Program-made: the position numbers and the translations under genes | In this document: piece after piece, positions 11,832-59,125 of the stretch | How the letters are laid out: each line of letters opens with the position of its first letter | Position numbering within the stretch: position 1 is the stretch's first letter | Source of the DNA: an uncultured delta proteobacterium | GTDB taxonomy: Bacteria > Myxococcota_A > UBA9160 > JAFDET01 | Direction of reading: 5' to 3' | Assembly (NCBI GenBank): GCA_947259215.1 | Contig: CAMYLJ010000022.1 | Span: 125,238-189,237, forward strand | DNA: 64,000 bases | The notes under the pieces: model-generated | Databases searched by the model: none | What the model was told of the DNA's origin: nothing | What the model saw: the letters and a program-made list of their open reading frames with translations, nothing else

Positions 11832-11837
11832 GGGACG

Positions 11838-33197: not shown

Positions 33198-33986
33198 ATG
33201 CTGAGCAGACGAAGCTTCTTCCGCAAGCTCCTCGACAACCCTCGGGCCCGGGAACTCTTCATGAACTCGCTGGCGGTGGGCGAGGCGGACAGCGCCGTCG
33301 GCCTCGACCGCGTGGCCGAGCACATCGCCGATCCGATCGTGGCCCGGAAGGTCTACCGCCACTACGCCGAAGAGGTGAAGCACGCCCGCCTCTTCGGGCA
33401 GCACCTCGAGAAGACCCTCGGTGTGTCACCGAAGCCGTTGCCGCCCGAGCTCGACTACGAGCAGTACGTGCGCCGTTACGAAATGGGCACGCCGGCGTCA
33501 CGACTCGATGACCCGACGCCCTTCTCCGACGACGAGCTCATCACCTTCTTCGTGGGCTGCAAGGCGGGCGAGGAGCGCGCCATGGCCGAGATGGGTGACC
33601 TGGTGCGCGATCTGGGCGCCGACCCGGAGACCGTCGAGGTGCTCGAGATCATCCACGGCGACGAGATCCGACACGTGTCGTACGCCACCGAGGAGCTGAA
33701 CCGGCTGGCGGACGCGGGCAACCGCGAGCGCGTGGTCCAGGAGCTGCGCCGGGCCCGGCGTGCCGAGGCCCGCGCCCACCGGCACGTGAGCCGCGCCTTC
33801 CTCGGCCGACTGATGGAGATCCTGGAGGTGCCGCGCGCGATCCGCTTCTTCGCCGGGCTGTCCATCGACGTCCAGTGCGTCCTGCGGATCCTCTCCCCCG
33901 GCGGCCTCGATCGCCCGCTGGTGGAGAATCCCATGCCCGTGCCGGAGGGGCCCCGGGGCCAGGGAGATCCCGCGGAGTCGGCGTGA
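33198..33986 (+). CDS. Ferritin-like di-iron protein of unknown function
   Basis: 262 aa with two ExxH motifs (AEEVKHARLF, HGDEIRHVSY). Its stop overlaps the hpnJ start (GTGA). Confidence 0.7.
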   Translation: MLSRRSFFRKLLDNPRARELFMNSLAVGEADSAVGLDRVAEHIADPIVARKVYRHYAEEVKHARLFGQHLEKTLGVSPKPLPPELDYEQYVRRYEMGTPASRLDDPTPFSDDELITFFVGCKAGEERAMAEMGDLVRDLGADPETVEVLEIIHGDEIRHVSYATEELNRLADAGNRERVVQELRRARRAEARAHRHVSRAFLGRLMEILEVPRAIRFFAGLSIDVQCVLRILSPGGLDRPLVENPMPVPEGPRGQGDPAESA

Positions 33987-35425
33987 GGACCCTGTTCCTC
34001 AATCCGCCCTCCTTCGAGGGCTTCGACGGCGGCGCGGGCTCCCGCTACCAGGCACGCCGGGAGATCCGGTCCTTCTGGTACCCCACCTGGCTGGCCCAGG
34101 CCGCGGCCCTGATTCCCGACAGCGTCCTGATCGACGCTCCGCCCCACGACGTCACGATCGAGGACGTGGAGGCCCGCGCCGACGAGTTCGGGCTCGTGAT
34201 CATGCACACCTCCACGCCGTCGCTGGCCCATGACGCCAAGACCGCCGCGCGCCTGAAGGAGCTGAACCCGCGGCTGCGCATCGGGCTGGTGGGCTCCCAC
34301 ACCATGGTGCTGCCGGAGGAGAGCCTGCGCATCGCGCCCGCCGCGGACTTCGTCACGACCGGCGAGTTCGACTACGCCGTGAAGGAGATCGCCGAGGGCA
34401 CGCCGCTGGATGCGGTGGACGGCATCTGCTGGCGGGCGCCGGACGGAACCCTGCTTCGCAACGCCGAGCGGCCGCCGATCCACGACCTGGACGCCATCCC
34501 CTTCGTGAGCGACGTCTACGCGCGCGACCTCGAGGTCGAGCGCTACTTCATCGGCTACCTCCAGCACCCCTACGTGAGCCTCTACACGGGGCGCGGCTGT
34601 CGCAGCCGCTGCAGCTTCTGCCTCTGGCCCCAGACCATCGCCGGCCACGTCTACCGCACGCGCAGCGTCGAGCACGTGCTGGCCGAGATGGCCCACGCCA
34701 AGGAGCTCTTTCCCCAGGTGAAGGAGTTCTTCTTCGACGACGACACCTTCACCGACGACCGCCCGCGCGCCGAGGCGATTGCAAAGGGGCTCGGCGAGCT
34801 CGGCATCACGTGGTCCTGCAACGCCAAGGCCAACGTCCCCTACGAGACCCTGAAGGTCATGAAGGAGGGCGGCCTGCGGCTCTTGCTGGTGGGCTTCGAG
34901 TCCGGGAACCAGCAGATCCTCAACAACATCCGCAAGGGCATCAAGGTCGAGGGCGCCCTCGAGTTCGCCGAGAATTGCCGCCGGCTCGGCATCATCCTGC
35001 ACGGGACGTTCATCCTCGGACTGCCGGGCGAGACCCACGAGACCATCCAGGAGACCGTGGAGTTCGCCAAGCGCGTGGACCCCTACAGCCTCCAGGTCTC
35101 GCTGGCCGCGCCCTACCCCGGAACCGAGCTCTATCGCCAGGCGCTCGACAACGGCTGGATGCAGACGCGACCGGGCGAGGAGCTGATCGCGGAACACGGG
35201 ATCCAGGAGGCCGCGCTCTCCTACGACGGGCTCCCCAGCGAGCAGATCCACGAGGAGCTCGAGCGCTTCTACCGCGCCTACTACCTGAGGCCGGGTCCGA
35301 TCCTGCGTATCGTGAAGGACATGCTGAGGGATCGTGAGGTCATGCGGCGGCGCCTCCGCGAGGGATGGGAGTTCTTCTCGTTCATGGCGCAGCGGCGACA
35401 CTCCCCCTCGCACGAATCGGCGTGA
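33983..35425 (+). CDS. hpnJ: Hopanoid-biosynthesis-associated B12-binding radical SAM protein HpnJ
   Basis: The GTG at 33983 gives 480 aa. The N-terminus LFLNPPSFEGFDGGAGSRYQARREIRSFWYPTWLAQ matches my memory of the HpnJ family. It has the radical SAM Cys cluster GRGCRSRCSFC. Confidence 0.85.
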   Translation: MRTLFLNPPSFEGFDGGAGSRYQARREIRSFWYPTWLAQAAALIPDSVLIDAPPHDVTIEDVEARADEFGLVIMHTSTPSLAHDAKTAARLKELNPRLRIGLVGSHTMVLPEESLRIAPAADFVTTGEFDYAVKEIAEGTPLDAVDGICWRAPDGTLLRNAERPPIHDLDAIPFVSDVYARDLEVERYFIGYLQHPYVSLYTGRGCRSRCSFCLWPQTIAGHVYRTRSVEHVLAEMAHAKELFPQVKEFFFDDDTFTDDRPRAEAIAKGLGELGITWSCNAKANVPYETLKVMKEGGLRLLLVGFESGNQQILNNIRKGIKVEGALEFAENCRRLGIILHGTFILGLPGETHETIQETVEFAKRVDPYSLQVSLAAPYPGTELYRQALDNGWMQTRPGEELIAEHGIQEAALSYDGLPSEQIHEELERFYRAYYLRPGPILRIVKDMLRDREVMRRRLREGWEFFSFMAQRRHSPSHESA

Positions 35426-36270
35426 CCCGGCTCCTCGTCGTCACCGCCGACGACTTCGGGGCGAGCCCCGAGGTCAACGAGGCCATCGCCCGCGGCCACC
35501 GCGAAGGCGTGCTCACGACGGCGAGCGTGCTGGTCAGCGGCGAGGCCTTCGACGAGGCCGCCCAGCGGGCGCGCGATCTCCCGAACCTCTCCACCGGCCT
35601 GCACCTGGCCCTTTGCGACGCGGCTCCGGTCAGCCCGCCCGACGCGATCCCGGACCTGCTCGGGCCCGACGGGCGCTTCCCGCCCCGCCCCGGGCCCACC
35701 GGCGTGTCCCATTTCGTGCACTGGGGTCGTCGCAAGGATCAGCTCGAGCGGGAGGTGCGCGCCCAGCTGGAGCGCTACCTGGCAGCGGGCCTGCCCCTGG
35801 ACCACGTGGACAGTCACCACCACCTGCACATGCACCCGCGCATCTTCGACCTGGTGCAGCGCTTCCTCGAAGACTACAAGGTGCCGTGGCTGCGGCTCGT
35901 GGACGAGGACCGCGGCGCGCGGCGCGGCGACGAGCCCTGGCTGGGTGAGATCGTGGCCGACGCCTTCCGGCTGCTGTCCGCCCGCGGACGCCGCGCGCTG
36001 GCCGCCAGCGACAGCGTGCGCGGGCCCGACCGCGTCTACGGCCTGCGCGCCACCGGCCGCATGGACCGCGACGAGTGGCTGCGCTTGCTGCCGCGCATGC
36101 GCGGCGAGGTCGCCGAGGTGTACGCCCACCCGAGCACGGCATCGGCCTCGGGACGCCGCGAGCTCGAAGCGCTGTGCGACGACGCCGTGCGCCAGGCCAT
36201 CCGGCGGGCGGGCTGGCGCACGGTCGGAACCCGCGAGCTGGCCCAGGCCGAGGCCAGGAGCAGCTCGTGA
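35422..36270 (+). CDS. hpnK: Hopanoid-biosynthesis-associated YdjC/ChbG-family deacetylase HpnK
   Basis: It has a GTGA overlap with hpnJ and YdjC hallmarks (VTADDFGASPEVNEAI, DSHHHLHMHP). Confidence 0.8.
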   Translation: MTRLLVVTADDFGASPEVNEAIARGHREGVLTTASVLVSGEAFDEAAQRARDLPNLSTGLHLALCDAAPVSPPDAIPDLLGPDGRFPPRPGPTGVSHFVHWGRRKDQLEREVRAQLERYLAAGLPLDHVDSHHHLHMHPRIFDLVQRFLEDYKVPWLRLVDEDRGARRGDEPWLGEIVADAFRLLSARGRRALAASDSVRGPDRVYGLRATGRMDRDEWLRLLPRMRGEVAEVYAHPSTASASGRRELEALCDDAVRQAIRRAGWRTVGTRELAQAEARSSS

Positions 36271-37367
36271 GCGTGCTGCTCGCCGCCCTCGGAGCCTGGC
36301 TCGCCGCCGCGGTGGTCTACCGGCTGCTCGCGTTCTGGTCGATCGACCGCCACCTGCGCGACCCGGGCGACGGCGACGCGTCGGTGCCGCCGTCGGGCGA
36401 GGTGCTGGCGGTGCGACCCCTCCGCGGCGCTCCTTCGCAGCTGGCCCCCTGTCTCGAGAGCCTCTGGCGCGCCGCGGAGCGCGCGGGCGCCCGTGTGACC
36501 CTCGCCGTCGCGGACCGCGCGGACCCGGCACTGCCGCTGGTCGAGAAGGCGCTGGCCGACGGCGGCCGCCCGCCGACGGACGTCCGCATCGACCCGGGTC
36601 CCCCCGGCCTGAACCGCAAGATGGCCAACCTGATCCAGGCGACGGGCGACAGCGAGGCCGAGTTCCTGCTCTTCTCCGACGCGGACGTGCGCGTTCCCGA
36701 GAACTACGTGGGCCGGGCGGTCCGCCCGTTCAAGGACGGCGACGTCGGGCTCGCGACGTTCCCCTATTACAGCGTTCCGGGGCGGAGCCTCGCGAGCCGC
36801 ATCGACGCCCTGATCACCAACACCCACTTCTTGCCCAGCGTGGCGGCAGCGCTCTCGCTCCAGGGGCTGCACTTCGGCCTGGGCGCCAGCATCGCCGTGC
36901 GCAGCGAGGCCCTGCGCAAGGCCGGCGGCCTCGAGGCGCTGATGGAGGTCAACGGCGACGACTACTGGATGGGCCGCCGCATCGAGGACGCCGGCTATCG
37001 GCTGGCCTTCGTGCCGATGATGCTGGAGCACCGCCTGGAGGACGAGGGCTGGCGGGCGTCGGCGTCGCGGCATCTGCGCTGGGCCAGCGTGGTGCGCGAG
37101 CAGCGGCCGCCGGGTTACCTGGGCCAGGCCGTCACCTACGGCGCCGTGCCGGCGCTATCCCTCGCCGTCGCGGGAGCGCTCGCCGGGGCCACCCCGGCGC
37201 TGTGGCTGGCGCCCGCGGCCTGGTGGGCGTTCGACCTGGCGGGCCTGTGGCGGCGACGGCGCACCCTGGGCCTGCGGCGCCGCGACCTGGCGCTGGTCCC
37301 GCTGTCCGACCTCTCCGTCTTCGCCATCTGGCTCGGGGGATTCTTCGGCCGGGCGCGCCCGAGCTGA
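36267..37367 (+). CDS. hpnI: Hopanoid-biosynthesis-associated family-2 glycosyltransferase HpnI (ceramide-glucosyltransferase-like)
   Basis: It has a GTGA overlap with hpnK, an N-terminal TM, the D-x-D region FSDADV, and the (Q/R)xxRW-type RHLRWASV. Confidence 0.8.
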   Translation: MSVLLAALGAWLAAAVVYRLLAFWSIDRHLRDPGDGDASVPPSGEVLAVRPLRGAPSQLAPCLESLWRAAERAGARVTLAVADRADPALPLVEKALADGGRPPTDVRIDPGPPGLNRKMANLIQATGDSEAEFLLFSDADVRVPENYVGRAVRPFKDGDVGLATFPYYSVPGRSLASRIDALITNTHFLPSVAAALSLQGLHFGLGASIAVRSEALRKAGGLEALMEVNGDDYWMGRRIEDAGYRLAFVPMMLEHRLEDEGWRASASRHLRWASVVREQRPPGYLGQAVTYGAVPALSLAVAGALAGATPALWLAPAAWWAFDLAGLWRRRRTLGLRRRDLALVPLSDLSVFAIWLGGFFGRARPS

Positions 37368-37371
37368 GCCC

Positions 37372-38592
37372 GTGGCCCACCCCCTCGCCACCCGCGCCTC
37401 CCTCTACTGGCGGCTCTTCCGGGGCGTGCTCGAGAACCCGCGCTTCTACCACTTCGTGCTGCGGGGCGGACCGTACGAGAAGACCGCGCGGCGCCTGGCC
37501 GCCGGTGACCTCCCGGGCAAGGGCGAGCACTACCCGGTCAAGCTCGACCTGCGCATCGTCTACTCCTGCAACCTCCGCTGCAAGATGTGCGGCCAGTGGG
37601 GCGACACGGGCACGTTCTTCGACTACGACCAGGCCAAGCTGCGCCAGCACCTCTCCGTGGACGCGATCCGCAGCGTCGTGGAGGAGCTCGTCCCCCACGG
37701 CCTGCGCTACGTGGACATGGAGGGCGGCGAGACCTTCCTTCACCCGCAGATCATGGACCTGCTCCGGATGCTGAAGTCCCACGGGCTCTTCGTGAAGCCG
37801 GTCACCAATGGCACGCGCCTCGATCGCTTCGCCGACGAGATCGTGGACTCGCGGATCGAGGCCCTGCACGTCTCGCTCGACGGCGATCGCGAGGCCAACA
37901 ACCACGTGCGGGGCTTCGACTGGGCCTACGACAAAGCCATGGACGGCCTGCGCGCCGTGGCGGAGGCGCGCCGCCGCGCCGGACGCCACACGCCGCTGCT
38001 CCAGATCAGCTTCACCATGACGCGGCACAACAACGCCGAGTCGCTGGTGAAGCTCTGCGAGGACGTCTCCGGCCAGGGTCTCGTCGATGTGATCTCGATC
38101 AAGGCGAGCCCGATCTGGCTGCCCGAGGAGAAGGGGCGCGCCTACCAGGAGCTGGTAAGCCGCTACCTCGGCGTCCACGAGAGCGTCGACAGCTGGAAGG
38201 GGTTCGTCGAGGACTACTCGGACTTCGGCGACGACGCCCGGCGCATCGCGGACGTCATCGCGGACCTGAAGCGGCGTAGCTTCGACTTCTTCGTCGACGC
38301 CCTGCCGAGCATCGACCTGAAGCAGCTGCCGCGCATGTACCAGGACCACGACTGGGACCTGGGGCGCAGCCACTGCCCGATTCCGTACGTCGAGCCCACC
38401 ATCGAGGCCGATGGCAACGTCTACGCCTGCAACCTCTACACCGACGAATCCATGTCGATGGGCAACATCCACGAGCGGCCCTTCCTCGACATCTGGTTCG
38501 GCGAGAAGTTCCAGGCCTTTCGCAAGATGCTGAACGAGGAAGGCGGGCTGCTGCCCATCTGCAACCGCTGCTGCCAGCTCGTCGAGAACTAG
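37372..38592 (+). CDS. Radical SAM enzyme with a SPASM/twitch-like C-terminal Cys-rich domain
   Basis: It starts 4 nt after the hpnI stop. It has CxxxCxxC in YSCNLRCKMCGQWG, GGETFLH, and C-terminal cysteines (HCPIPY, YACNLY, PICNRCCQL). It does not look like HpnH, HpnP or HpnR. Confidence 0.85.
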   Translation: MAHPLATRASLYWRLFRGVLENPRFYHFVLRGGPYEKTARRLAAGDLPGKGEHYPVKLDLRIVYSCNLRCKMCGQWGDTGTFFDYDQAKLRQHLSVDAIRSVVEELVPHGLRYVDMEGGETFLHPQIMDLLRMLKSHGLFVKPVTNGTRLDRFADEIVDSRIEALHVSLDGDREANNHVRGFDWAYDKAMDGLRAVAEARRRAGRHTPLLQISFTMTRHNNAESLVKLCEDVSGQGLVDVISIKASPIWLPEEKGRAYQELVSRYLGVHESVDSWKGFVEDYSDFGDDARRIADVIADLKRRSFDFFVDALPSIDLKQLPRMYQDHDWDLGRSHCPIPYVEPTIEADGNVYACNLYTDESMSMGNIHERPFLDIWFGEKFQAFRKMLNEEGGLLPICNRCCQLVEN

Positions 38593-40244
38593 GGCGCCAG
38601 GCGGTAGACGACGCGGCCGCCGGCTGCGTCGAGCGTCTCCGCGCGAAGCCCGAGGCGCTCGAGCCGGCCCTCGAGCACCTCGGGCTCTCCCACCAGGAAG
38701 ACCTCTCTTCGCTCGGCGACGAGCCCGGACAGCGCGGCGTCGTCCAGGATCAGGGCCTGGCGCTCCGCCTGGTGGAACGCCATGCGGCTGCCCTCGGACG
38801 CCGCCAGCACCGACACCGGCGCCCGGACGTAGAAGGCGAGCAACGCCACGTGCTCGAACTCCGGCGGCTCCACGGAGACGAGGAGCGCGTCGTCCCCGGC
38901 CAGCTCGTTGAAGCGATCCGCGGCGAACTTGCGCGACTCCTCGGCGTACTGGACCCGGTAGGTGGAGCGGGTCACCTGGAAGAGCACCACGCAGACGACG
39001 GCGATGCAGGCCAGCGCCAGCGCGGCGCGCCCGACCGCGAACGCCAGCGCGGCGCCGAGACCGAAGAGGCCCGTGGCGGCCAGGAAGATGATGGCCAGCT
39101 CGAGGGACGGGATCCCGAGCTGCGCCACGAAGGCGGAGTCGCGTCCCAGGCCCAGGACCGCCAGCGACCCGATCGCGAGCCCGGTCACCAGGAACCAGGG
39201 CATTGCCCAGGCGCGTTCCGACGAGAAGCGCTTCTGGTCGAGCATGTCGGACAGGCATACGGCCATGGCCAGCAGCACGGGCGGATAGACCTGGAGCCCG
39301 TAGGCATCCACCTTGCTCGCCGAGAGCGAGTAGGTGACCAGCGGGATCGCGGCCCAGGCGCCGAGCAGCACCAGCCGGTCCGCCGGCAGGACGCGCGCTC
39401 GCACGCCGCGCGCCAGGTCGCCGGCCGCCGCGGGCAGGTGCAGGATCCAGGGGAAGAGCTCCGCGGCCACGAGCGCGAGCCAGAGCCCGGTGGGGAAGAG
39501 CGCGTCGTTGGACACCATGGAGCCCGTGAAGCGACGCAGGTGCTCGTTCAGGAGGAAGACCTCCAGGAAGTCCGGATGCCGCACCGCCATGGTGACGAGC
39601 CACGGGCCGACCAGCGCCAGGAAGACCGCCGGCCCGACGGGATGGAAGAGCCGCCAGAGCGGGCTCCCGTCCCGACACCAGAGCCGGTGGCAGAGCGCCG
39701 TCCCGCCCGGCACGAAGACGCCGGGCAGCCCCTTGGCCAGGAAGCCCAGCGCCATGGCGGCGTAGAAGGCGGCCAGCCAGGAGAGCGCGCCGGTCTGGTG
39801 GAAACGCCAGTACGCCGCCACCGCCGCGATGGTCGGCGCCACCAGCGCGAACTCGATCCCGGCGTCGAGCCCGTAGACGTACACCTCGGTGGTGAGGAGA
39901 AAGAGCACGAAGGCGAAGAAGCTCGTGCGCCGGTCGAAGAGCATGGCGCCGAGCAGCGCCAGCAGGCCCGCCGAGGCGAGCGCCCAGGCCAGGTTCGAGA
40001 TGCGGGCGGCCGCCTCGCTCACGCCGAAGCCGGTGTAGAGCAGCGCCGTCGGCCAGTAGGAGAGCGGCGGCTTCTCGTAATAGGCGGCGTAGTCCAGGTG
40101 GGGCGTCAGCCAGTCGCCGAGCTCGACCATCTCGCGCGGGATCTCCGCGTACTTCGCCTCGGAGTCGCGCAGCGGCCGATCGACGCCCGGGAGGTAGACG
40201 GCGGCCGCCACGACCACGACGAGGAGCCACCAGCCGAAACGCAC
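38589..40244 (-). CDS. ArnT-like GT-C glycosyltransferase (family 39/83), paralog 1
   Basis: 551 aa and polytopic. The first periplasmic loop DSEAKYAEIPREMVELGDWLTPHLDYAAYYEKPPLSYW closely resembles E. coli ArnT (RYAEISREM ... YFEKP) as I recall it. Confidence 0.85.
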   Translation of the reverse strand: MRFGWWLLVVVVAAAVYLPGVDRPLRDSEAKYAEIPREMVELGDWLTPHLDYAAYYEKPPLSYWPTALLYTGFGVSEAAARISNLAWALASAGLLALLGAMLFDRRTSFFAFVLFLLTTEVYVYGLDAGIEFALVAPTIAAVAAYWRFHQTGALSWLAAFYAAMALGFLAKGLPGVFVPGGTALCHRLWCRDGSPLWRLFHPVGPAVFLALVGPWLVTMAVRHPDFLEVFLLNEHLRRFTGSMVSNDALFPTGLWLALVAAELFPWILHLPAAAGDLARGVRARVLPADRLVLLGAWAAIPLVTYSLSASKVDAYGLQVYPPVLLAMAVCLSDMLDQKRFSSERAWAMPWFLVTGLAIGSLAVLGLGRDSAFVAQLGIPSLELAIIFLAATGLFGLGAALAFAVGRAALALACIAVVCVVLFQVTRSTYRVQYAEESRKFAADRFNELAGDDALLVSVEPPEFEHVALLAFYVRAPVSVLAASEGSRMAFHQAERQALILDDAALSGLVAERREVFLVGEPEVLEGRLERLGLRAETLDAAGGRVVYRLAP

Positions 40245-40332
40245 GGCCTACCTCCGCGGCGGAGGGTAGCCAGGGGCCCCGGGTTGTCAGCGCGGCCGGC
40301 TGCCCTAGCTTTCGGCTCGAGGAGGGGGCTCC

Positions 40333-41364
40333 GTGCGCATCGGCATCCTCGGGGCCAACGGCTTCATCGGAAGCAATCTGACCCAGCACATCCTGGAGCA
40401 GCAGGACTGGGACGTCTGGGGCCTGGACCTGGACGCCACCCGCCTGGAGGAGCTGGGCCCGAATCCACGCCTGAAGGTCACCCGCGGGGACATCCTGCGC
40501 GAGCACGACCTGGTGGAGGAGATGGTGGCGGGCTGCGACGTGGTGCTTCCCCTGGCTGCCATCGCCACACCCATCAGCTATGTGCGCCACCCGCTCTCCG
40601 TCTTCGAGCTGACCTTCGAGGCCAACCTGCGCGTGGTGCGGGCCTGCGTCCGCCATGGCAAGCGCGTGGTCTTCCCGTCGAGCTCCGAGGTCTACGGCAT
40701 GAGCGACGAGCCGCCCTTCGAAGAGGGCACCACGAAGCTCGTGCTGGGCCCGATCGACAAGCACCGCTGGATCTACGCCTGCTCGAAGCAGCTCCTGGAC
40801 CGGGTGATCCACGCCTACGGACTCGAGGAAGGCCTGGCCTACTCGATCTTCCGACCCTTCAACTGGATCGGGCCGCGCCTCGACAACGTGCTCGACGCCC
40901 GCGAGGGCAGCTCGCGGGTGCTGACCCAGTTCATCGGGAACGTGGTGCGGGGCGAGAGCATCCAGCTGGTGGACGGCGGCTTCCAGCGCCGCTGCTTCCT
41001 CTACATCGACGACGCGATCGACGCGCTGGTGCGGATCATCGCCAACGAGGACGGCTGCGCGGACGGGCGCATCTTCAACGTGGGCAACCCCGCCAACGAC
41101 CTCTCGATCCGGGAGCTGGGCGAGCTCCTGCTCGAGCTCTTCGAGGCGATCCCGGGCTACGAGACCGTGCGCGAACGCGTCGGCCTCGTGGACGTGCCCT
41201 CGAAGGAGTACTACGGCAAGGGCTACCAGGACATCGCCGTGCGCTCGCCCTCGATCCGGAACGCCGAGCAGTTCCTGGGCTGGAAGCCCAGCACGGACCT
41301 GCGAAGTGCCATCGGGCGCACCATCGACTTCTACCTCGACGAGGTCGCGCGGGCGCAGGCGTAG
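40333..41364 (+). CDS. arnA: UDP-glucuronate oxidative decarboxylase, free-standing ArnA C-terminal domain homolog
   Basis: 343 aa, collinear with the E. coli ArnA C-domain as I recall it (GANGFIGSNL, VVLPLAAIATPISY, FPSSSEVYGM, WIYACSKQLLDRVI, FRPFNWIGPRLD, YYGKGYQDI..RSPSIRNA). Confidence 0.9.
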   Translation: MRIGILGANGFIGSNLTQHILEQQDWDVWGLDLDATRLEELGPNPRLKVTRGDILREHDLVEEMVAGCDVVLPLAAIATPISYVRHPLSVFELTFEANLRVVRACVRHGKRVVFPSSSEVYGMSDEPPFEEGTTKLVLGPIDKHRWIYACSKQLLDRVIHAYGLEEGLAYSIFRPFNWIGPRLDNVLDAREGSSRVLTQFIGNVVRGESIQLVDGGFQRRCFLYIDDAIDALVRIIANEDGCADGRIFNVGNPANDLSIRELGELLLELFEAIPGYETVRERVGLVDVPSKEYYGKGYQDIAVRSPSIRNAEQFLGWKPSTDLRSAIGRTIDFYLDEVARAQA

Positions 41365-41374
41365 CTCCGGGCTC

Positions 41375-42286
41375 GTGGCCACACCCCGACTCGCCATCAA
41401 GGTGGACGTAGACACCGAGCGCGGCACGCGCGACGGTGTCCCGCCGCTGGCGCGCGCGTTCGAGCGGGCCGGGGCGCCGGCCAGCTTCTACTTCTCCCTG
41501 GGCCCCGACAACACGGGACGCGCGCTACGCCGGGTCTTCCGGCGCGGCTTCGTCGGCAAGGTGACGCGCACGAACGTGCTGGGTACCTACGGCGTGCGCA
41601 CCCTGCTGAACGGAGTCCTGTGGCCCGGTCCGCGGATCGCCGCCCGCCACGCCGATCTGCTGCGCGGCGTGCGCGATGCGGGCTTCGAGGTGGGCGTCCA
41701 CTGCTGGGACCACGTGCGCTGGCAGGACCAGCTGCACGGGTGGGACGCGGACACGACGACGCGCGAGCTGGGCAAGGCGCTCGACGCCTTCCGCGAGGTC
41801 TTCGGCGAGCCCGCCGCCACCGCCGCCGCGGCCGGCTGGCAGGCCAACGCCAACTCGCTGGCCGCCTACGACGCCGCGGAGCTGCTCTACGCCAGCGACG
41901 CCCGCGGCCGCACGCCCTTCTGGCCCGTCTGCGACGGCCGGCGCTTCCGCACGCTCCAGATCCCGTCGACCTTGCCGACCCTGGACGAGCTGCTGGGACG
42001 GCCGGAGCACCCGGAGGCGGACCTGGTGGACCAGTACCTGGCCTGGCTGGACCCGGAGCGTCTCAATGTGTTCACGATGCACGCCGAGATCGAGGGCATG
42101 CGCATGCGGCCCTGGCTCGAGGGCTTCCTCGACGCCTGCCGGTCCGCGGGCGTGCGCTTCACGGCCCTCGCCGACGAGGCGCGGCGCCTCCGCGAAGCAC
42201 CCGACGCCGCGCCCGCCTGCCAGCTCGAGCAGGACGAGATCCCGGGCCGCAGCGGCCGCCTGGCCGTGCAGGGCGCCGACGTCTAG
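41375..42286 (+). CDS. arnD: 4-deoxy-4-formamido-L-arabinose-phosphoundecaprenol deformylase ArnD (polysaccharide deacetylase fold)
   Basis: GTG at 41375. It has LAIKVDVDTERGTRDGVP, FYFSLGPDNTGR, GVHCWDH, AAAGWQA and MHAEIEG, which parallel E. coli ArnD. Confidence 0.88.
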   Translation: MATPRLAIKVDVDTERGTRDGVPPLARAFERAGAPASFYFSLGPDNTGRALRRVFRRGFVGKVTRTNVLGTYGVRTLLNGVLWPGPRIAARHADLLRGVRDAGFEVGVHCWDHVRWQDQLHGWDADTTTRELGKALDAFREVFGEPAATAAAAGWQANANSLAAYDAAELLYASDARGRTPFWPVCDGRRFRTLQIPSTLPTLDELLGRPEHPEADLVDQYLAWLDPERLNVFTMHAEIEGMRMRPWLEGFLDACRSAGVRFTALADEARRLREAPDAAPACQLEQDEIPGRSGRLAVQGADV

Positions 42287-43941
42287 GGGTTCGCTCCTGC
42301 CTCGAGCAACACCAGGTGCAGCTCCCGCTTGCTCCCCGACACGTGTTGGGCGAGCACGCGGTGCGGGATCCCTGCCGCGGCGAACTCCGCGTAGTCGCCG
42401 CGCCCGCGCTTGCCCTCGATCAGGGCGTAGACCGGCGCGCCGTCGGCCGCCAGGGCGCCGAGCGCGGCAGGGTCGTCCACGATGGCCATGCGTAGGTCCG
42501 TGTAGAAGGCCGCCAGGCCGCGGGTCGTCTCCGTCGGGTCGAGGAGGTTCAGCACCGCGTCGTCCGGCACGTGACGCACGACCTGGTCGAGCGCGGGGCG
42601 CATGGTGCGCACGGGATCCAGCGGCACGAGCGCCAGCTGGAGACCGATCGCCCAACCCAGACACACCAGCGCGACCGTGCGCAGCCACCCTGCGGCCGGC
42701 GTCGGCGCCGGCTGGCGCGCCAGCCACCAGGCCGCGGCCGCGAAGAGCGCCACGCCGAGCACGGCCCACGGCCAGAAGCCGGCGCTCGCTCCGAGGCCGA
42801 TGCCGACGCCGAGCCCCGCTGCCGCCAGCACCGCTGCGGCGGCGACGGCGACCGCCGCCCAGATGCGCGCGAACCGCATCTCCCACCCGGAAGCCGCGAG
42901 ACCGGCGACCATCCACCACCCCGTCAACAGCGCCAGGGGCGGAAACACCGGAAGCAGGTAGAGACCGCGCTTCGTGCCCGCCAGGGAGAGCACCGCCACC
43001 GCGGGCAGGCTGGCCGCGATCAGCAGCCGCAGCCCGTCGCGCTCGTCCTCGGGCAGCGCCCGCCAGTGTCGCCACCCCGCCAGGCCGGCCAGGATCGCGA
43101 GCGGCGACCACGGGAGGAAGTCCACGGGCAGCTCGACCAGGTAGTAGCTGAGCGGCCGCTCGTGGCCGCCGGTGTACTCGCCCAGCGACGGCAGGAAGCG
43201 TCCGAGCTGGTTGTACACGAGAAAGGTGTGCAGCGCCTCGCCGCCCGCGTCGACCCACACGCGCCACAGCCAGAGCGAGATGACCCCGACGACCGTCAGC
43301 GCGCCGACGAAGAGGTGCACGCCGAAGAACTCGCGCAGACGACCGCTCCACACGAGGTACACGATGATGCCGAGCGCCGGCACAGCGACGCCGACGACGC
43401 CCTTGGCCAGGAACGCCGCCGCGACGCAGGCGTACATGCCGGCCAGCCAGCCCCGCCGCGTCCAGCCGGCCGGTGTGCGCGCGCGGGCGAAGCAGGCCAG
43501 CACGCCGGTGGTGGCGAGCACGAGCGCCGAATCCACGATCACCCAGTGGCTGGGCTGCACGAAGCCCCAGGCGCTGGCGAGCACGAGGGCGCCGAGCAGA
43601 CTCGCCTCCCGCGACAGGAACGCCCGGCCGAGCGCGTAGCTGGCGAAGAGGCTCGCCAGCCCGAAGACCGCCGAGGGCAGTCGCGCCAGCGCCGCGCTCG
43701 TGCGCCCGAAGGCCTCGAACACCAGCACCTGCGACCACCAGAAGAGCGGCGGCTTCTCGAGAAACGGAAGCCCGGTGAGGCGCGGCACGGCCCAGCTTCC
43801 GGACTGCCACATCTCGCGCCCGATGCCGGAGACCCGCGGCTCGTCGGGCGTCCAGAGCTCGTGGTTCGCGATGCCCGCCGCGGCGACGGCGAGTCCGACG
43901 AACGCCAGGGTCACGAGCGGGCGCGCCAGCGCTCGGGTCAC
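42283..43941 (-). CDS. ArnT-like GT-C glycosyltransferase, paralog 2
   Basis: 552 aa and polytopic, with the loop WTPDEPRVSGIGREMWQSGSWAVPRLTGLPFLEKPPLFWW. Confidence 0.85.
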   Translation of the reverse strand: MTRALARPLVTLAFVGLAVAAAGIANHELWTPDEPRVSGIGREMWQSGSWAVPRLTGLPFLEKPPLFWWSQVLVFEAFGRTSAALARLPSAVFGLASLFASYALGRAFLSREASLLGALVLASAWGFVQPSHWVIVDSALVLATTGVLACFARARTPAGWTRRGWLAGMYACVAAAFLAKGVVGVAVPALGIIVYLVWSGRLREFFGVHLFVGALTVVGVISLWLWRVWVDAGGEALHTFLVYNQLGRFLPSLGEYTGGHERPLSYYLVELPVDFLPWSPLAILAGLAGWRHWRALPEDERDGLRLLIAASLPAVAVLSLAGTKRGLYLLPVFPPLALLTGWWMVAGLAASGWEMRFARIWAAVAVAAAAVLAAAGLGVGIGLGASAGFWPWAVLGVALFAAAAWWLARQPAPTPAAGWLRTVALVCLGWAIGLQLALVPLDPVRTMRPALDQVVRHVPDDAVLNLLDPTETTRGLAAFYTDLRMAIVDDPAALGALAADGAPVYALIEGKRGRGDYAEFAAAGIPHRVLAQHVSGSKRELHLVLLEAGANP

Positions 43942-43993
43942 GGCTTGCCTCCGCGCTCGCAGCTAGCACAGCGCAGGGGGAGGGGCTATAGGG

Positions 43994-55172: not shown

Positions 55173-55879
55173 GGGCCGGCGTCCTGGCAGCGGGCCTCGG
55201 GGAACGGCTGCGCGCCGACGGCGTCGAGCAACCGAAGTCCCTGGTGCCGGTGGCCGGCCGCCCGCTCCTCCTCCACGCGCTGGCGGCCGTGCGCGATGCG
55301 GGCGCCGAGGACGCGGTGGTGGTGGTGAACGACGCTCACGCCGCCGCGGTCGAGAAGGCGCTGGCGCTCGAGGATCCGCCGCTCCCGGTGAGCCTCGTCC
55401 GCCGCACCACGGCCTCGAGCCTGGAGACCTTCGGCGTCGTGGCGCCCCATCTCCTGGATGCGCCGCGCGCGCTCGTCGCCATGGTGGACGGCGTCTTCCC
55501 GCCCGGCGCCGCCCGCGGGTTCGGCCGCGCGCTTCGCGACCTCGCATCGGAGGAGGGACTGATCGGCGTCAGCGACCGCCGCGACGACGACCGCCCCCTG
55601 CGCGTGGCGTTCGACGAAGACACGCGGCGCATCCGGGCCATCGGGCCGGGCGCCGAGGCGAGCCCCTGGGCGACGGCGGGACTCTACTGTCTGCCCGAGC
55701 GCGCCTTTGCCTCGGCGGAGCGCGCCCTCGCCGAAGGACTGGGCGCCCTGCGCCAGCACCTGTCGGGGCTCGTCACGGCGGGCGTGCTCCTGCGCGCGTA
55801 TCCGCTGGGCGAGGTGGTGGACGTGGATCGAGCCGACGACCTCGGCGAGGCGGAGCGCCTGCTGGGAGCCGCGTCGTGA
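55169..55879 (+). CDS. Nucleotidyltransferase (NTP_transferase fold; sugar/alcohol-phosphate cytidylyl/uridylyltransferase-like)
   Basis: It has a GTGA overlap and the N-terminal signature GVLAAGLGERL...KSLVPVAGRPLL. Confidence 0.85.
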   Translation: MRAGVLAAGLGERLRADGVEQPKSLVPVAGRPLLLHALAAVRDAGAEDAVVVVNDAHAAAVEKALALEDPPLPVSLVRRTTASSLETFGVVAPHLLDAPRALVAMVDGVFPPGAARGFGRALRDLASEEGLIGVSDRRDDDRPLRVAFDEDTRRIRAIGPGAEASPWATAGLYCLPERAFASAERALAEGLGALRQHLSGLVTAGVLLRAYPLGEVVDVDRADDLGEAERLLGAAS

Positions 55880-56733
55880 CGCGCGCGCCGCGCTGCGTGG
55901 GGGTGGCGCGCGAAGCGGTCTACTCGCCGGGGCGCTTCCTGGCGGCGGACCGCGCCATCCTGGAGGCCACGGGCCGCGCCCTCGTCGCCCGGGGCGCGCG
56001 CGTGGAGATCGTGGAGCCCGACGCGAAGCCCGCGGCCTTCGACGGCTGCGCGCTGGTCTTCGCCATGTGCCAGGGGCCCGCCGCGCTCGACGGCCTGCGC
56101 CAGCTGGCCGCACGGGGGATCCCGCTGGTCCACGGGGCGGACGCCATCCTGAACTGCCACCGCGTGCGCATGGTGCCGATCCTCGAGCAGGCCGGCCTGC
56201 CGCGCCCCGCGGCGCGGCTCGTCGACTCGGGCGCCCCCGACCCGGAGGCCCTGGCGTGGCTCGACGCGTTGCCCGCCGGCGCCTGGGTGAAGCGCGGCGA
56301 CGTGCACGCCACCCAGCCGGGGGATGTGTCGCACGCCGCCGACGCGGCGGCTGCACGGGGGGCCCTGGAGCGACTCGCGGCCCACGGCGTGCCGCGTGCG
56401 GTGCTCGAGGCCCACGCGCCGGGTCGCACGCTCAAGTTCTACGCCGTGCGCGGCACGCCGTTCTTCCGGCTCTTCGATGAGTCCGGGAGCGAGGTGGCGT
56501 GCGCCCACCCGGACTGGCGGGAGATCGCCGACCGCGCCGCGCACGCCCTCGGTCTGGCCGTCTACGGCGGCGACCTCGTAGTGGATGACGCAGGCGCGGC
56601 CGCGCTGGTGGACGTCAACGACTGGCCGTCCTTCTCCCGCTGCCGCGACGCTGCGGCCGAGGCGATCGCCACCCACCTGTGGACGCGGCTGGGCGCCCCG
56701 CGGGACGAAGTGCTACATCCCCACCCGTCGTGA
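55876..56733 (+). CDS. ATP-grasp-fold protein (RimK/inositol-phosphate-kinase-like), putative
   Basis: It has a GTGA overlap and is 285 aa. The C-terminal GGDLVVDDAGAAALVDVNDWPSF resembles the Mg-ATP-binding strand of ATP-grasp enzymes. The assignment is weak. Confidence 0.5.
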   Translation: MTRAPRCVGVAREAVYSPGRFLAADRAILEATGRALVARGARVEIVEPDAKPAAFDGCALVFAMCQGPAALDGLRQLAARGIPLVHGADAILNCHRVRMVPILEQAGLPRPAARLVDSGAPDPEALAWLDALPAGAWVKRGDVHATQPGDVSHAADAAAARGALERLAAHGVPRAVLEAHAPGRTLKFYAVRGTPFFRLFDESGSEVACAHPDWREIADRAAHALGLAVYGGDLVVDDAGAAALVDVNDWPSFSRCRDAAAEAIATHLWTRLGAPRDEVLHPHPS

Positions 56734-58043
56734 GTAGGATCTCCGGTCCCGAATCCGACAAGCTGGTGAGCGACGAGCAGCAGTGGCTCGCGCCCGGCAT
56801 CCAACGTCTGGCCACCCTGGCCGGCGTGGCGATGGAGTCCGCGCGCGGCTGCGTGATCGAGGACGCGGACGGTCGCAGCTACCTGGACTTCATGGCGGGC
56901 GTCGGCGTGGCGAGCCTGGGGCACAGCCACCCGCGCTGGGTGCAGGCGCTGGCCAACCAGGCGGGCAAGATCTCGATCGGCTCCTTCACCAGCGCACCCC
57001 GCCTGGCGTTGCTGAAGCTGCTGGCGGGGCTCTTGCCGGAGCCGCTGCGGCGCGTGCAGCTCTACTCCGGTGGCTCCGAGGCCGTCGAGGCGGCTTTGCG
57101 CCTGGCCAAGGCCCACACCGGCAAGTTCGAGGTGGTCGCCTTCTGGGGCGGCTTCCACGGCAAGACCGGCGGCGTGCTGCCGCTGATCGGCGATCCCTTC
57201 AAGCGCGGCTGGGGTCCGTTGGCGCCGGGCACCCACCTGGTGCCGTACGCGGATTGCGCACACTGCCCGCTCAAGCAGACGTATCCCGGCTGCGGCCTGG
57301 CGTGTGTGGACGTGGCGCGACAGCAGATCGAGGCGGCCTGCCTCGGCTCCATCGCCGCGGTCCTGGTCGAGCCGATCCAAGGCACCGCGGGCAACGTGGT
57401 GCCCCCGCCCGAGTGGCTGCCCGCCATCGCCCAGATGGCGAAGGATCTCGACGCGCTGCTGATCGTGGACGAGATGATCACCGGCTTCGGCCGCACGGGC
57501 GAGATGTTCGGCTTCGAGCACACGGACACGCTCCCGGACATCGTCACCATCGGAAAGGGCTTCGGGGGCGGCTTCCCGGTCACGGCTGTGATCGCGACCG
57601 ACGACGTCACTGCCGACTCGCATCCCTGGTCGAAGCCGTCTTCGTCCTCCTCGTCGGTCGGGGGCAATCCGCTGGCCGCCGCCGCCGCGCTGGCCACGGT
57701 GGAGACCATCCTCGACGAAAAGCTGGTGGAGAACTCGCGCCGCGTGGGCGCGCACATGCTGGTGCGGCTCGAGACCCTGCGCGAGCGCTTCCCCTTCGTG
57801 GGCGACGTGCGCGGCAAGGGCCTGCTGCTGGGTCTCGACCTCGTGGGCGAGAGCGGCGAGCCGCTGCCGGCCAGCGTCACCGAGCGCATCTACACCACCT
57901 GCGCCGAGCGCGGCCTGCTCGTGATGGCCTACGGGCCCCGGGTGCGTATCAACCCGCCCCTCGTGATCAGCGAGGAGGAAGCGGACGCCGGACTCGACCT
58001 CTTCGAGTCGGTCCTGGCGGAGCTCGCTCCCGAGATCCGATGA
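56730..58043 (+). CDS. Class-III (omega) aminotransferase
   Basis: It has a GTGA overlap. Motifs are LDFMAGVGVASLGHSHP, SGGSEAVEAALRLAK, LIVDEMITGFGRTG and the PLP-Lys context DIVTIGKGFGGGFP. Confidence 0.9.
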   Translation: MSRISGPESDKLVSDEQQWLAPGIQRLATLAGVAMESARGCVIEDADGRSYLDFMAGVGVASLGHSHPRWVQALANQAGKISIGSFTSAPRLALLKLLAGLLPEPLRRVQLYSGGSEAVEAALRLAKAHTGKFEVVAFWGGFHGKTGGVLPLIGDPFKRGWGPLAPGTHLVPYADCAHCPLKQTYPGCGLACVDVARQQIEAACLGSIAAVLVEPIQGTAGNVVPPPEWLPAIAQMAKDLDALLIVDEMITGFGRTGEMFGFEHTDTLPDIVTIGKGFGGGFPVTAVIATDDVTADSHPWSKPSSSSSSVGGNPLAAAAALATVETILDEKLVENSRRVGAHMLVRLETLRERFPFVGDVRGKGLLLGLDLVGESGEPLPASVTERIYTTCAERGLLVMAYGPRVRINPPLVISEEEADAGLDLFESVLAELAPEIR

Positions 58044-59059
58044 GCCCCTCCCTGGCCGGCGCCCTGGTGGGCTTCGGCGGGGTGGCCGAGCGCGGGCACC
58101 TGCCCGGCTACCGGCGCGACCCCCGCTTCGCCATCCACGCCGTCTGCGATCCCGATCCGCAGGCGCGCGAGCGCGCCCGGCGCGCCCTCGGAGAGGACGT
58201 GGCGCTCTACGCCGACGTGGACGCACTCCTCGCGGACGAGCGGCTCGACTTCGTCGACGTGGCGAGCCCGCCGGGCGATCACCTGCCCGCGCTGGAACGC
58301 GCCTTCGCGGCCGGCTTGCACGTGCTGGTGGAGAAGCCGCTGGCGCTCGACCCGGAGCAGGCCCGCCGTGCCCACGCAGCCGCTGACGCGGCGGAGCGCG
58401 CGCTCGTGGTGGTGCACAACTGGCACCACGCCCCGGCGTTCCGCACCGCCCGCGAGGCCATCGCGGAGGGCGCCATCGGCGCGCCGCGGGCCGTCGAGTT
58501 CGTGACGGAACGCACCCAGCCGGCGGGCGGGGCCGTGTGGCGGCTCGACGCCCGGACCGCGGGCGGCGGCATCCTGGTGGACCACGGCTGGCACCAGCTC
58601 TACCTGGCGGGTCGCCTGCTGGGCGATCCGGACCCGGTGCGCGTCAGCGCGAACGTCGAGACGCGGCGCTGGACCGGGGCGAACGTGGAGGACACCGTGG
58701 ACGCGCGCGTCGAGTACGCGGGTGGTGCCAGCGCGCGCCTCCGCCTCACCTGGGCCGCCGTGGAGCGCCGCACCCGCGTACGCGTCGAAGGCGACGCCGG
58801 CGCGCTCCGCATCGAGGACACGCGCGTCGCGCTGATCTCGCCGGGCGGGAATCGCGAGCTGCCGGTGGACGCAGACGCCCCGGACGACTCCTACCACGCC
58901 ACCTGGTTCCCCGCGGTGCTCGACGCCTTCGCCCGCGCCATGGCCGATCCGCGCCACGCGCACCCCAATCGCCGCGAGGCGCTCTGGTGCCAGACGGTGA
59001 TCGACGCCGCCTACGAGTCCGGTCGGCGCGAGGGCGAAGCCGTCGACGTGAAGCCGTAG
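58040..59059 (+). CDS. Gfo/Idh/MocA-family NAD(P)-dependent oxidoreductase
   Basis: It has an ATGA overlap, the N-terminal Rossmann GALVGFGGVAERGHLP, and the EKP motif VLVEKPLA. Confidence 0.88.
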   Translation: MSPSLAGALVGFGGVAERGHLPGYRRDPRFAIHAVCDPDPQARERARRALGEDVALYADVDALLADERLDFVDVASPPGDHLPALERAFAAGLHVLVEKPLALDPEQARRAHAAADAAERALVVVHNWHHAPAFRTAREAIAEGAIGAPRAVEFVTERTQPAGGAVWRLDARTAGGGILVDHGWHQLYLAGRLLGDPDPVRVSANVETRRWTGANVEDTVDARVEYAGGASARLRLTWAAVERRTRVRVEGDAGALRIEDTRVALISPGGNRELPVDADAPDDSYHATWFPAVLDAFARAMADPRHAHPNRREALWCQTVIDAAYESGRREGEAVDVKP

Positions 59060-59125
59060 ACCGGACTGGACCCCGCTGCGGCGCCTCTGGTACAGGTGGA
59101 AGCGGGGGTCGGGGCGGAGCGCGCG

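Follow-up and report, generated by a model that had tools for sequence, protein, structure and literature searches.

The interval 33198-59059 of the DNA analyzed here raises the question of whether adjacent genes for several kinds of envelope-lipid chemistry serve one product or only share a neighborhood. The DNA is a stretch of 64,000 nucleotides (nt), hereafter the window, of contig CAMYLJ010000022.1 from an uncultured delta proteobacterium. The interval contains hopanoid-type hpn genes (g1-g5, unit A), arn-type genes for 4-amino-arabinose (Ara4N; g6-g13, unit B), a tripartite pump (g14-g17), and a cytidine diphosphate (CDP)-alcohol operon (g18-g23). An earlier note, made from the sequence alone, had proposed that these four modules form one coordinated envelope-lipid system. 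Comparison with relatives bears this out for three modules (hpn, pump, and CDP-alcohol), which are linked in other genomes, but not for arn. The reading judged somewhat more probable than its opposite is a composite envelope-lipid locus, in which the hopanoid unit A is linked to a pump and CDP-cyclitol unit (unit C).

Linkage of hpn, pump and CDP-alcohol genes in relatives

The relatives are all uncultured, and the named ones are metagenome-assembled genomes (MAGs) labelled Myxococcota or 'Deltaproteobacteria'. The loci L095, L097, and L103 correspond to ERZ25039514, ERZ25039600, and GCA_033853555.1, respectively. In the gene orders given here, >< and / separate blocks of genes. OEP, MFP, ABC, and MacB stand for the outer-membrane factor, membrane-fusion protein, ATP-binding cassette ATPase, and permease of the pump. 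CDPOH is the g18-type phosphotransferase, CDPOH2 a second enzyme of this family, NTP the nucleotidyltransferase, AT3 the class-III aminotransferase, GFO the Gfo/Idh/MocA oxidoreductase, and diFe the di-iron protein.

The hpn, pump, and CDP-alcohol genes occur together in the window, L095, L097, L102, and L103/L104. L097 (a 555-kb contig) has hpnJ-hpnK-hpnI >< MacB-ABC-MFP-OEP / CDPOH-HAD-NTP-g21-AT3-GFO. The two NCBI MAGs L103/L104 show the same membership in another order, HpnL-diFe-hpnJ-hpnK-hpnI >< GFO-AT3-g21-NTP-HAD-CDPOH-HpnL-like-CDPOH2 / OEP-MFP. L095 (a 765-kb contig) lacks hpnJ and has hpnI-g5, about 3 kb including an HpnL-like gene, and then the pump / the CDP-alcohol operon. L102 (a 1.47-Mb contig) has GT21-CDPOH, hpnJ-HpnL-like-hpnK, and OEP-MFP-ABC-MacB, without genes for the HAD phosphatase, NTP transferase, ATP-grasp protein, aminotransferase, or oxidoreductase. 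No arn donor genes are present in L095, L097, L102, or L103/L104.

HpnJ proteins of the window, L097, L098, L102, and L103 are 73-80% identical in all pairs (73-78% between g2 and the other four), and thus the five lineages are roughly equidistant. A pump and a g18-type enzyme are found within 10 kb in four of these five. The shuffled gene order across equidistant loci suggests a functional link among the hpn, pump, and CDP-alcohol genes. Homologs of the window genes at 8995-13774, which lie 19 kb off on the hpn side in the window, abut the CDP-alcohol side in L095. This rearrangement of the flanks indicates that the block stayed together while its surroundings moved.

The hopanoid assignment of unit A depends on L098 as well as on the window. 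L098 encodes diFe-hpnJ-hpnK-hpnI between HpnM/HpnL and MlaA, HpnH, DXS, SHC, two SQS_PSY genes, and HpnE; HpnH and HpnM scored 403 and 209 bits, and SQHop_cyclase and both SQS_PSY genes were matched. With HpnM and an MlaA-like gene on either side of the hpn orthologs, this placement indicates that the divergent GT21 and the di-iron protein are hopanoid genes. On sequence grounds, unit A is truly hopanoid-related, because its HpnJ scores above the equivalog cut-off and the L098 orthologs lie inside an shc/hpnH cluster. HpnI and HpnJ domains were reported only in genomes also having SHC and HpnH (10.1101/2025.07.29.667474).

L096 combines the pump with the CDP-alcohol operon, as MIPS-MacB-ABC-MFP-OEP / CDPOH2, HpnL-like, CDPOH-HAD-NTP-(g21-AT3 fusion)-(GFO-AT3 fusion). 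Its pump operon includes a gene for myo-inositol-1-phosphate synthase (MIPS). From this arrangement, the pump and the CDP-alcohol operon are the tightest unit, and inositol phosphate is a likely feedstock.

Co-localization in other genomes, which the earlier note had suggested to examine, was found for hpn, pump, and CDP-alcohol genes, while arn is usually stand-alone. L014, the locus closest to the arn module, is a stand-alone cluster of arn and three GT-C genes (ArnB 76%, ArnC 78%, dehydrogenase 81%, and ArnD 68% identical, plus orthologs of g9 and g10), and Planctomycetota/Brocadiia MAGs contain a similar stand-alone cluster of arn and multiple GT-C genes. Units A and C are lacking in L014, L006, L007, and L013. 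Pump, hpn, and CDP-alcohol genes are absent from 79 of the 80 nearest metagenome ArnB loci, the exception being L015. The arn genes are joined to the island only in the window and in two short contigs from relatives at 50-75% identity. These are L010 (hpnK-hpnI-GTC1-ArnAdh-ArnD-GTC2-GTC3, without g5) and L015 (CDPOH2-CDPOH-HAD-NTP-g21 / MFP-ABC-MacB-ArnB). In the window as well as in L015, arn genes share the orientation of the pump genes. Judging from these distributions, arn is probably a lineage-specific addition and probably co-regulated. The most economical history is that a self-contained arn module was inserted once between hpn and the pump, an event that put arnB, arnC, and the formyltransferase gene under the pump operon promoter.

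Gene content of the interval

Calling by third-position GC content revealed 23 tightly packed contiguous genes (Table 1); the window has a GC content of 72%, and its raw lists of open reading frames (ORFs) are therefore swamped by shadow frames. The earlier note had counted 24 genes, but space for a 24th is absent. Every enzyme family that it named was matched by Pfam and NCBIfam searches. Look-ups of g5 and g7 for identical proteins in the sequence collection gave no match, probably owing to differing start codons. The borders at 33198 and 59059 are reasonable because the flanking genes are unrelated on both sides: a sensor kinase, DUF4345, and a 2-hydroxyacid dehydrogenase upstream, and an acyl-CoA dehydrogenase, GST, and HxlR downstream. 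The sensor kinase (30947-32935) and the acyl-CoA dehydrogenase (59096-60346) were considered as further members and rejected, since neither is kept beside the island in L095, L097, and L103.

Table 1. Genes of the island and the intergenic region between its divergent operons, with predicted products. Family calls are based on Pfam and NCBIfam models, with bit scores given against the model cut-offs.
Feature	Position	Strand	Predicted product	Basis
g1	33198..33986	+	soluble ferritin-like di-iron carboxylate protein, AurF/DUF455-like, 262 aa	Pfam, motifs
g2	33983..35425	+	HpnJ, B12-binding radical-SAM enzyme	TIGR03471 741 bits vs 577.6 cut-off, full length
g3	35422..36270	+	HpnK, YdjC-type deacetylase	YdjC 220 bits; TIGR03473 230.4 vs 232.6 cut-off
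g4	36267..37367	+	HpnI-like GT21 glycosyltransferase, divergent clade	TIGR03472 219 bits, under 310 cut-off
g5	37372..38592	+	radical-SAM/SPASM enzyme, accessory	Radical_SAM + SPASM
g6	38589..40244	-	GT-C transferase 1, most ArnT-like of three	PMT/PMT_2; ArnT model 139 bits vs 567
g7	40333..41364	+	UDP-glucuronate oxidative decarboxylase, ArnA C-terminal half type	PRK11908 490 bits vs 294
g8	41402..42286	+	ArnD-like deformylase	PRK15394 233 bits, full length, under 382 cut-off
g9	42283..43941	-	GT-C transferase 2	PMT_2
g10	43994..45664	+	GT-C transferase 3	PMT_2
g11	45661..46557	-	formyltransferase, ArnA N-terminal half type	PRK06988 342 bits vs 316
g12	46575..47534	-	ArnC-like polyprenyl-phosphate glycosyltransferase	PRK10714 325 bits, under 529 cut-off
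g13	47531..48616	-	ArnB-like DegT aminotransferase	DegT 381 bits; PRK11658 400 bits, under 631 cut-off
g14	48635..49843	-	MacB-type permease (periplasmic core domain + FtsX)	MacB_PCD, FtsX
g15	49815..50516	-	ABC ATPase of pump	ABC_tran; LolD, MacB, DevA models under cut-offs
g16	50503..51630	-	membrane-fusion (periplasmic adaptor) protein	HlyD_D23/HlyD_3; RND_mfp 152 bits vs 95
g17	51653..53005	-	TolC-like outer-membrane factor	OEP; TolC-family model 76 bits
Intergenic region, pump/arnBCA operon vs CDP-alcohol operon	53006..53319			368-aa database call of g18 (P0058) used
g18	53320..54426	+	DIPPS/AF2299-like CDP-alcohol phosphotransferase, N-terminal cytosolic domain of about 165 aa	CDP-OH_P_transf
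g19	54417..55172	+	HAD-family phosphatase	Hydrolase/HAD_2
g20	55169..55879	+	cytidylyltransferase-like NTP transferase	NTP_transf_3/IspD; IPCT/DIPPS model positions 1-217 (IPCT half)
g21	55876..56733	+	ATP-grasp protein, ITPK/RimK-like, previously unannotated family	no Pfam match; profile search
g22	56766..58043	+	class-III aminotransferase	Aminotran_3 321 bits
g23	58040..59059	+	Gfo/Idh/MocA oxidoreductase, inositol-dehydrogenase-like	GFO_IDH_MocA; iolG model 85 bits

The transcription units are g1-g5 (+), g6 (-), g7-g8 (+), g9 (-), g10 (+), g11-g17 (-), and g18-g23 (+). The genes g11-g17 all point the same way and form one run between 53005 and 45661, spaced by -29 to +22 nt, and g18-g23 overlap by 4-10 nt with one gap of 32 nt. 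The earlier note had placed the arn and pump modules on one transcript; spacing, the only evidence used here, fits this for g11-g13 and the pump, while the other arn genes belong to separate units. The CTAG stop that it described as shared by g5 and g6 is real (38589-92), and two more are present at 42283-86 and 45661-64. The palindromic CTAG ends the three convergent pairs g5/g6, g8/g9, and g10/g11, with the opposite-strand stop codons overlapping by 2 nt, and the equivalents of the pairs in L010 are 17-25 nt apart. The divergence between the pump/arnBCA and CDP-alcohol operons also holds, but with the P0058 start the spacer measures about 314 nt and not 260 nt. The sequence GATGCTATCAC at 53112-53122 is common to the equivalent spacers of L095 and L097, and could be a promoter or operator element. 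It is found once only in the window, and its interpretation as a repeated operator was rejected for lack of a second copy there. A promoter and terminator scan of 33-53 kb yielded one promoter-like and two terminator-like sites, at or below shuffle expectation, and Rfam at the gathering threshold gave nothing in the window.

In characterized systems, HpnI adds GlcNAc to bacteriohopanetetrol, HpnK deacetylates it, and HpnJ contracts the ring to an amino-cyclitol ether. The hpnK gene sits between hpnJ and hpnI, its expected operon position. The homologs of g4 are all from uncultured bacteria, and the HpnI-annotated protein P0243 is only 32% identical to it. The GT21 ortholog in L098 (56% identical to g4) also scores just 244 bits with TIGR03472 despite its location in the shc/hpnH cluster, which indicates that the cut-off of this model is unsuited to the clade. 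The g1 protein shows two ExxH motifs, no transmembrane segment, weak matches to AurF (30.6 bits) and DUF455, and a weak match to R2lox in a profile search. Its orthologs, 64-66% identical, lie directly upstream of hpnJ in L098 (6917-7705) and L103/L104 (5399-6217 in L103). This DUF455/AurF-like di-iron protein is a candidate for a new hopanoid-associated gene family. Another gene for an AurF/DUF455/Phenol_Hydrox-like di-iron protein (20816-21889) is flanked by genes for a TetR regulator and a sulfatase (20193-23264); it lies upstream of the island, about 12 kb away. The closest relatives of g5 with solved structures are BlsE (1.4e-9, core) and BtrN (7e-7, C-terminal cluster domain), which are sugar and aminocyclitol enzymes. 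A g5 ortholog adjoins hpnI in L095 and is absent from L010, L097, L098, and L103.

The pump has the full set of a MacB-type tripartite exporter (OEP, MFP, ABC_tran, and MacB_PCD+FtsX) in a single co-directional run. Orthologs of g14 with 63-72% identity lie beside the CDP-alcohol operon in L015, L096, L097, and L102, and frame-shifted fragments with 59-89% identity in L095. The models of the DevBCA subfamily were not reached (DevA 180 bits vs 296, DevB 50 vs 129).

In the CDP-alcohol operon, g18 is a multi-pass membrane enzyme with an intact motif, DGCDGEVARLSLRTSSLGGTLDLIGD at residue 214, which fits Dx2DGx2AR...Gx3Dx3D. Its matches among solved structures are 4mnd (IPCT/DIPPS, 4e-17) and 4o6m (AF2299, 4e-15), with PIPS at merely 2e-4, and a distant homolog (P0145, 40%) sits in an unrelated context. 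In L015 (3562-4998), L096 (7706-8824), and L103 (16501-17874), the CDP-alcohol operon starts with a second CDP-OH_P_transf gene, whose product is longer (372-478 aa); this gene is absent from the window, L095, and L097. HpnL-like (LPG_synthase_TM) proteins are encoded in or beside the CDP-alcohol operon at L096 9264-10004, L103 15503-16504, and L095 3311-4321. TIGR03476 is their best and sole NCBIfam match, under its cut-off, and no HpnL-like gene was found anywhere in the window.

The g21 protein was assigned with a profile of 35 sequences, which matched ITPK4 (4.8e-7), a RimK-like ligase (6.7e-6), and ITPK1 (5e-4). Its family comprises 936 clusters in a search of 1.84 billion representative proteins (P0247-P0396), with fusions NTP_transf_3-g21 (n=7), HAD-NTP_transf-g21 (P0362), and g21-CDP-OH_P_transf (P0288). 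The profile match and the fusions indicate an ATP-grasp enzyme in the same pathway as the HAD phosphatase, nucleotidyltransferase, and phosphotransferase; its role is most economically read as that of an inositol-type kinase. The family distribution suggests that the HAD/NTP/ATP-grasp/CDP-alcohol cassette is widespread and uncharacterized. The solved relatives of g22 are generic GABA- and ornithine-type transaminases. A role as an HpnO-like hopanoid aminotransferase was considered for g22; no HpnO model is among its best 25 NCBIfam matches, and the L098 hopanoid cluster has no such gene. For g23, the top solved-structure matches include scyllo-inositol dehydrogenase. A Pfam scan of the 23 genes did not find a MIPS gene in the interval.

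The route to the Ara4N donor is complete, with decarboxylase, ArnB, formyltransferase, ArnC, and ArnD, although for ArnB, ArnC, and ArnD the best models stay under the enterobacterial equivalog cut-offs. Compared with the two parts of ArnA, g7 matched residues 317-649 with 442 bits and g11 residues 5-290 with 295 bits; the next-best family for g12 scored 167 bits. The GT-C proteins g6, g9, and g10 are mutually just 27-30% identical, and with ArnT-model scores of 139, 102, and 56 bits against a cut-off of 567, none of these PMT_2 proteins reached the equivalog level. An ortholog of g6 (51%) adjoins hpnI in L010 and none is present in L014, while g9 is 57% identical to L014_a and 50% to L010_b. 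Orthologs of g10 (36-54% identity) occur in arn clusters of Myxococcota, Planctomycetota, and Verrucomicrobiota MAGs. The GT-C gene upstream of hpnJ in L097 was ruled out as an ortholog of g6, g9, or g10 by sequence comparison. No unassigned small membrane ORF for ArnE/ArnF is left in the interval, which is filled by the 23 genes; these may lie elsewhere in the genome.

Outside the island, a 119-aa LAB_N (lipid A biosynthesis N-terminal) protein, a further small envelope-lipid-related gene, is convergent with a short-chain dehydrogenase with a 4-nt overlap (18732-19897). Between the LAB_N gene and a ParA/FeS-assembly gene, a 1192-aa subtilase (Peptidase_S8) with FG-GAP repeats (15067-18645) is unrelated to the island.

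Predicted product and its alternatives

In unit A, g4, g3, and g2 would perform the glycosylation, deacetylation, and ring contraction known for HpnI, HpnK, and HpnJ. The hopanoid product is probably tailored further by g1, a candidate for hydroxylation or N-oxygenation, and by g5, a candidate for cyclitol or sugar oxidation or decarboxylation. Two routes can be drawn for the CDP-alcohol operon. The first is modelled on the logic of the streptidine pathway: the HAD phosphatase g19 would free inositol from the MIPS product, and inositol would be converted into inosose by g23, inosamine by g22, inosamine phosphate by g21, and CDP-inosamine by g20. In the second, g21 and g19 would relocate the phosphate on the ring before activation with CTP, much as ADP-heptose synthesis employs a kinase, a HAD phosphatase, and a nucleotidyltransferase. 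The g18 enzyme would then pass the phospho-cyclitol from the CDP-cyclitol to a lipid alcohol. This acceptor is possibly a hopanoid polyol or cyclitol ether. Three features favor it: the operon is syntenic with hpnIJK, GT21 and CDPOH genes are paired in L100 and L102, and HpnL-like genes occur within the CDP-alcohol operon of relatives. From the inner membrane, the product would be taken up by the MacB-type pump and leave by the TolC-like channel for the outer membrane or the surface.

Unit B would carry out UDP-Ara4N synthesis, formylation, transfer to a carrier lipid, and deformylation, with three ancient GT-C paralogs; its three genes under the pump promoter would be co-regulated with the pump, which does not imply a shared product. 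One specific product, a phospho-(amino)cyclitol hopanoid (on the cyclitol ether or glucosamine) exported by the tripartite ABC exporter instead of HpnN, is proposed tentatively and is rather unlikely in this exact form. It could be further charge-tuned by Ara4N in this lineage. For the Ara4N-decorated hopanoid of the earlier note, nothing beyond adjacency was found in support.

Several observations weigh against the linked locus or its proposed chemistry. All chemical steps of unit C and the identity of the acceptor are predictions from sequence, and the single-sequence AlphaFold2 models of g1 and g21 (pLDDT 41 and 46) are too poor for use. The genes shc and hpnH were not found among the window genes scanned, and the capacity of this genome to make hopanoids is an indirect conclusion. 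L098 contains hpnIJK without the pump or the CDP-alcohol operon within 10 kb, and L096 contains the pump, the CDP-alcohol operon, and MIPS without hpnIJK within 10 kb; at the level of adjacency, the link is not obligatory. The linked loci are all from one broad uncultured clade, and inherited synteny could explain part of the association. A putative alternative inositol-lipid cluster of unconfirmed function in Bacteroides vulgatus/Prevotella has the same core as the CDP-alcohol operon (Heaver et al. 2022, PMC9246714). That cluster comprises MIPS, an NTP transferase, a CDP-alcohol transferase, a HAD protein, and an LPG-synthase-like neighbor, of which the NTP transferase, CDP-alcohol transferase, and HAD protein form the core in question. 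Ceramide phosphoinositol is reported to be made by Myxococcus xanthus (Lorenzen et al. 2014, as cited in PMC9246714). Together they make a diacylglycerol or ceramide acceptor credible.

Some of these observations support the alternative that the neighbors are chemically independent, which is possible and clearly less probable than linkage. The products would be an inositol- or inosamine-phosphate glycero- or sphingolipid made by a Kennedy-type 'alternative inositol lipid' pathway, the ordinary cyclitol ether of bacteriohopanetetrol, and lipid A modified by arn; adjacency would reflect a membrane-lipid gene neighborhood or shared regulation. In its favor are the core shared with Bacteroides/Prevotella, where MIPS is adjacent and the LPG-synthase-like gene is a neighbor, the ceramide lipid of M. 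xanthus, MIPS in the pump operon of L096 with no hpnIJK nearby, and the solitary hpnIJK of L098. It does not account well for the occurrence, in five loci and three gene orders, of hpnJ/K/I-type genes next to a pump and a phosphotransferase of the g18 type, for the HpnL-like genes within the CDP-alcohol operons of L096 and L103, or for the adjacent pair of GT21 and CDP-alcohol transferase in L100 and L102. The L100 pair (in L100 1-17188) is paralogous, 75% and 58% identical to that of L102; its neighbors are GT-C, asparagine synthase, an ArnC-like GT2, two Kdo_hydroxy, and two ATPgrasp_ST genes, with no hpnJ, hpnK, or pump. L100 may represent a related head-group system whose target is another lipid or lipopolysaccharide (LPS).

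It is improbable that all four modules build one hybrid surface lipid, a hopanoid cyclitol with phospho-alcohol and Ara4N exported as a unit. ArnT-type enzymes add Ara4N to lipid phosphates, and the CDP-alcohol operon would make a lipid phosphate of this kind. The genes arnB, arnC, and the formyltransferase gene follow the pump genes co-directionally and tightly in the window and L015, and an ortholog of g6 is present only in L010, beside hpn genes, and is missing from L014, which has arn alone. Against this, arn with multiple GT-C genes is self-sufficient in L014 (donor enzymes 76-81%) and Planctomycetota, L095, L097, L102, and L103 hold hpn, pump, and CDP-alcohol genes without arn donor genes, and 79 of the 80 ArnB loci are without the other modules.

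The last alternative is a soluble phosphodiester (a di-inositol-phosphate (DIP)-like solute or an aminocyclitol metabolite) secreted by the pump without a lipid acceptor. It would suit the similarity of g18 to IPCT/DIPPS, whose product DIP is soluble, the Gfo/Idh/MocA and then aminotransferase steps that open aminocyclitol natural-product pathways, and the export of soluble molecules by MacB-type pumps too. It is also improbable. Against it are the persistent association with hpnIJK and HpnL-like genes and the recurrent GT21-CDPOH pair, and the locus lacks the extra tailoring and resistance genes usual in antibiotic clusters.

Comparison with known systems

Hopanoids rank among the major lipids of bacterial membranes and serve as geological biomarkers, and the diversity of their head groups and their transport are only partly explained genetically. 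If the linked locus is real, the recurrent combination of hpnIJK with a CDP-cyclitol phosphotransfer pathway and an exporter of the MacB type would suggest an unrecognized hopanoid derivative and a second transport route; a phospho-cyclitol hopanoid would be the first phosphorylated hopanoid head group with a new hopanoid export route. The locus also flags the DUF455-like di-iron protein and the BlsE/BtrN-like radical-SAM enzyme as new candidate hopanoid genes. If the products are separate, it would be a compact model of how the remodeling of hopanoid, inositol-type lipid, and Ara4N is coordinated in an uncultured diderm. A synteny survey of hopanoid genes names HpnL, HpnM, HpnS, and HpnT as candidate partners, and its text has no mention of MacB, TolC, ABC transporter, efflux, or DUF455 (10.1101/2025.07.29.667474). 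A full-text literature search found no functional link of hopanoids to CDP-alcohol phosphotransferases.

The HpnI/HpnK/HpnJ clusters of the Burkholderia, Methylobacterium, and Zymomonas type contain the same three enzyme families in one operon. In contrast to them, the GT21 here is about 32% identical to an HpnI-annotated protein and under the model cut-off, the operon adds the di-iron protein and, in some lineages, the BlsE/BtrN-like enzyme, and a MacB-type pump and a CDP-alcohol operon accompany the hpn genes. HpnN (RND) and HpnM/HpnS (Mla-like) are, like the pump here, candidate hopanoid routes to the outer membrane, but they belong to other transporter superfamilies, and the interval has no HpnN-, HpnM-, or HpnL-like gene.

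By gene families, the CDP-alcohol operon resembles the Bacteroides cluster and the archaeal/thermophile IPCT/DIPPS system, with which it shares a cytidylyltransferase, a DIPPS-like phosphotransferase, and a HAD protein, and in relatives also MIPS nearby (L096) and an LPG-synthase-TM/HpnL-like neighbor. Bacteroides and Prevotella are not known to make hopanoids. The locus here differs from the Bacteroides cluster in its pairing with a tripartite exporter and hpnIJK, and in its additional ITPK-like ATP-grasp, class-III aminotransferase, and Gfo/Idh/MocA genes, which suggest an amino- or isomerized cyclitol rather than plain myo-inositol.

All donor-synthesis activities of the Arn (PmrHFIJKLM) lipid A pathway and GT-C transferases are present here, and the split-ArnA form of this pathway occurs in Burkholderia. 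The differences are the three divergent GT-C paralogs (27-30% identical) with none at ArnT equivalog score, the lack of ArnE/ArnF-like genes in the cluster, and the distribution of the arn genes over four transcription units, with three of them behind an efflux pump. MacAB-TolC and DevBCA-HgdD share the outer-membrane factor, membrane-fusion protein, and MacB_PCD/FtsX permease with the pump here. In this pump, the ATPase and permease are separate polypeptides, and the scores with the DevA, DevB, and MacA/B models are all under the cut-offs. DevBCA is a glycolipid exporter, and glycolipids and LPS-like molecules have been linked to MacAB as substrates. Each enzyme family in the interval is thus known, and the locus is a hopanoid tailoring locus with undescribed accessory modules rather than a categorically new system.

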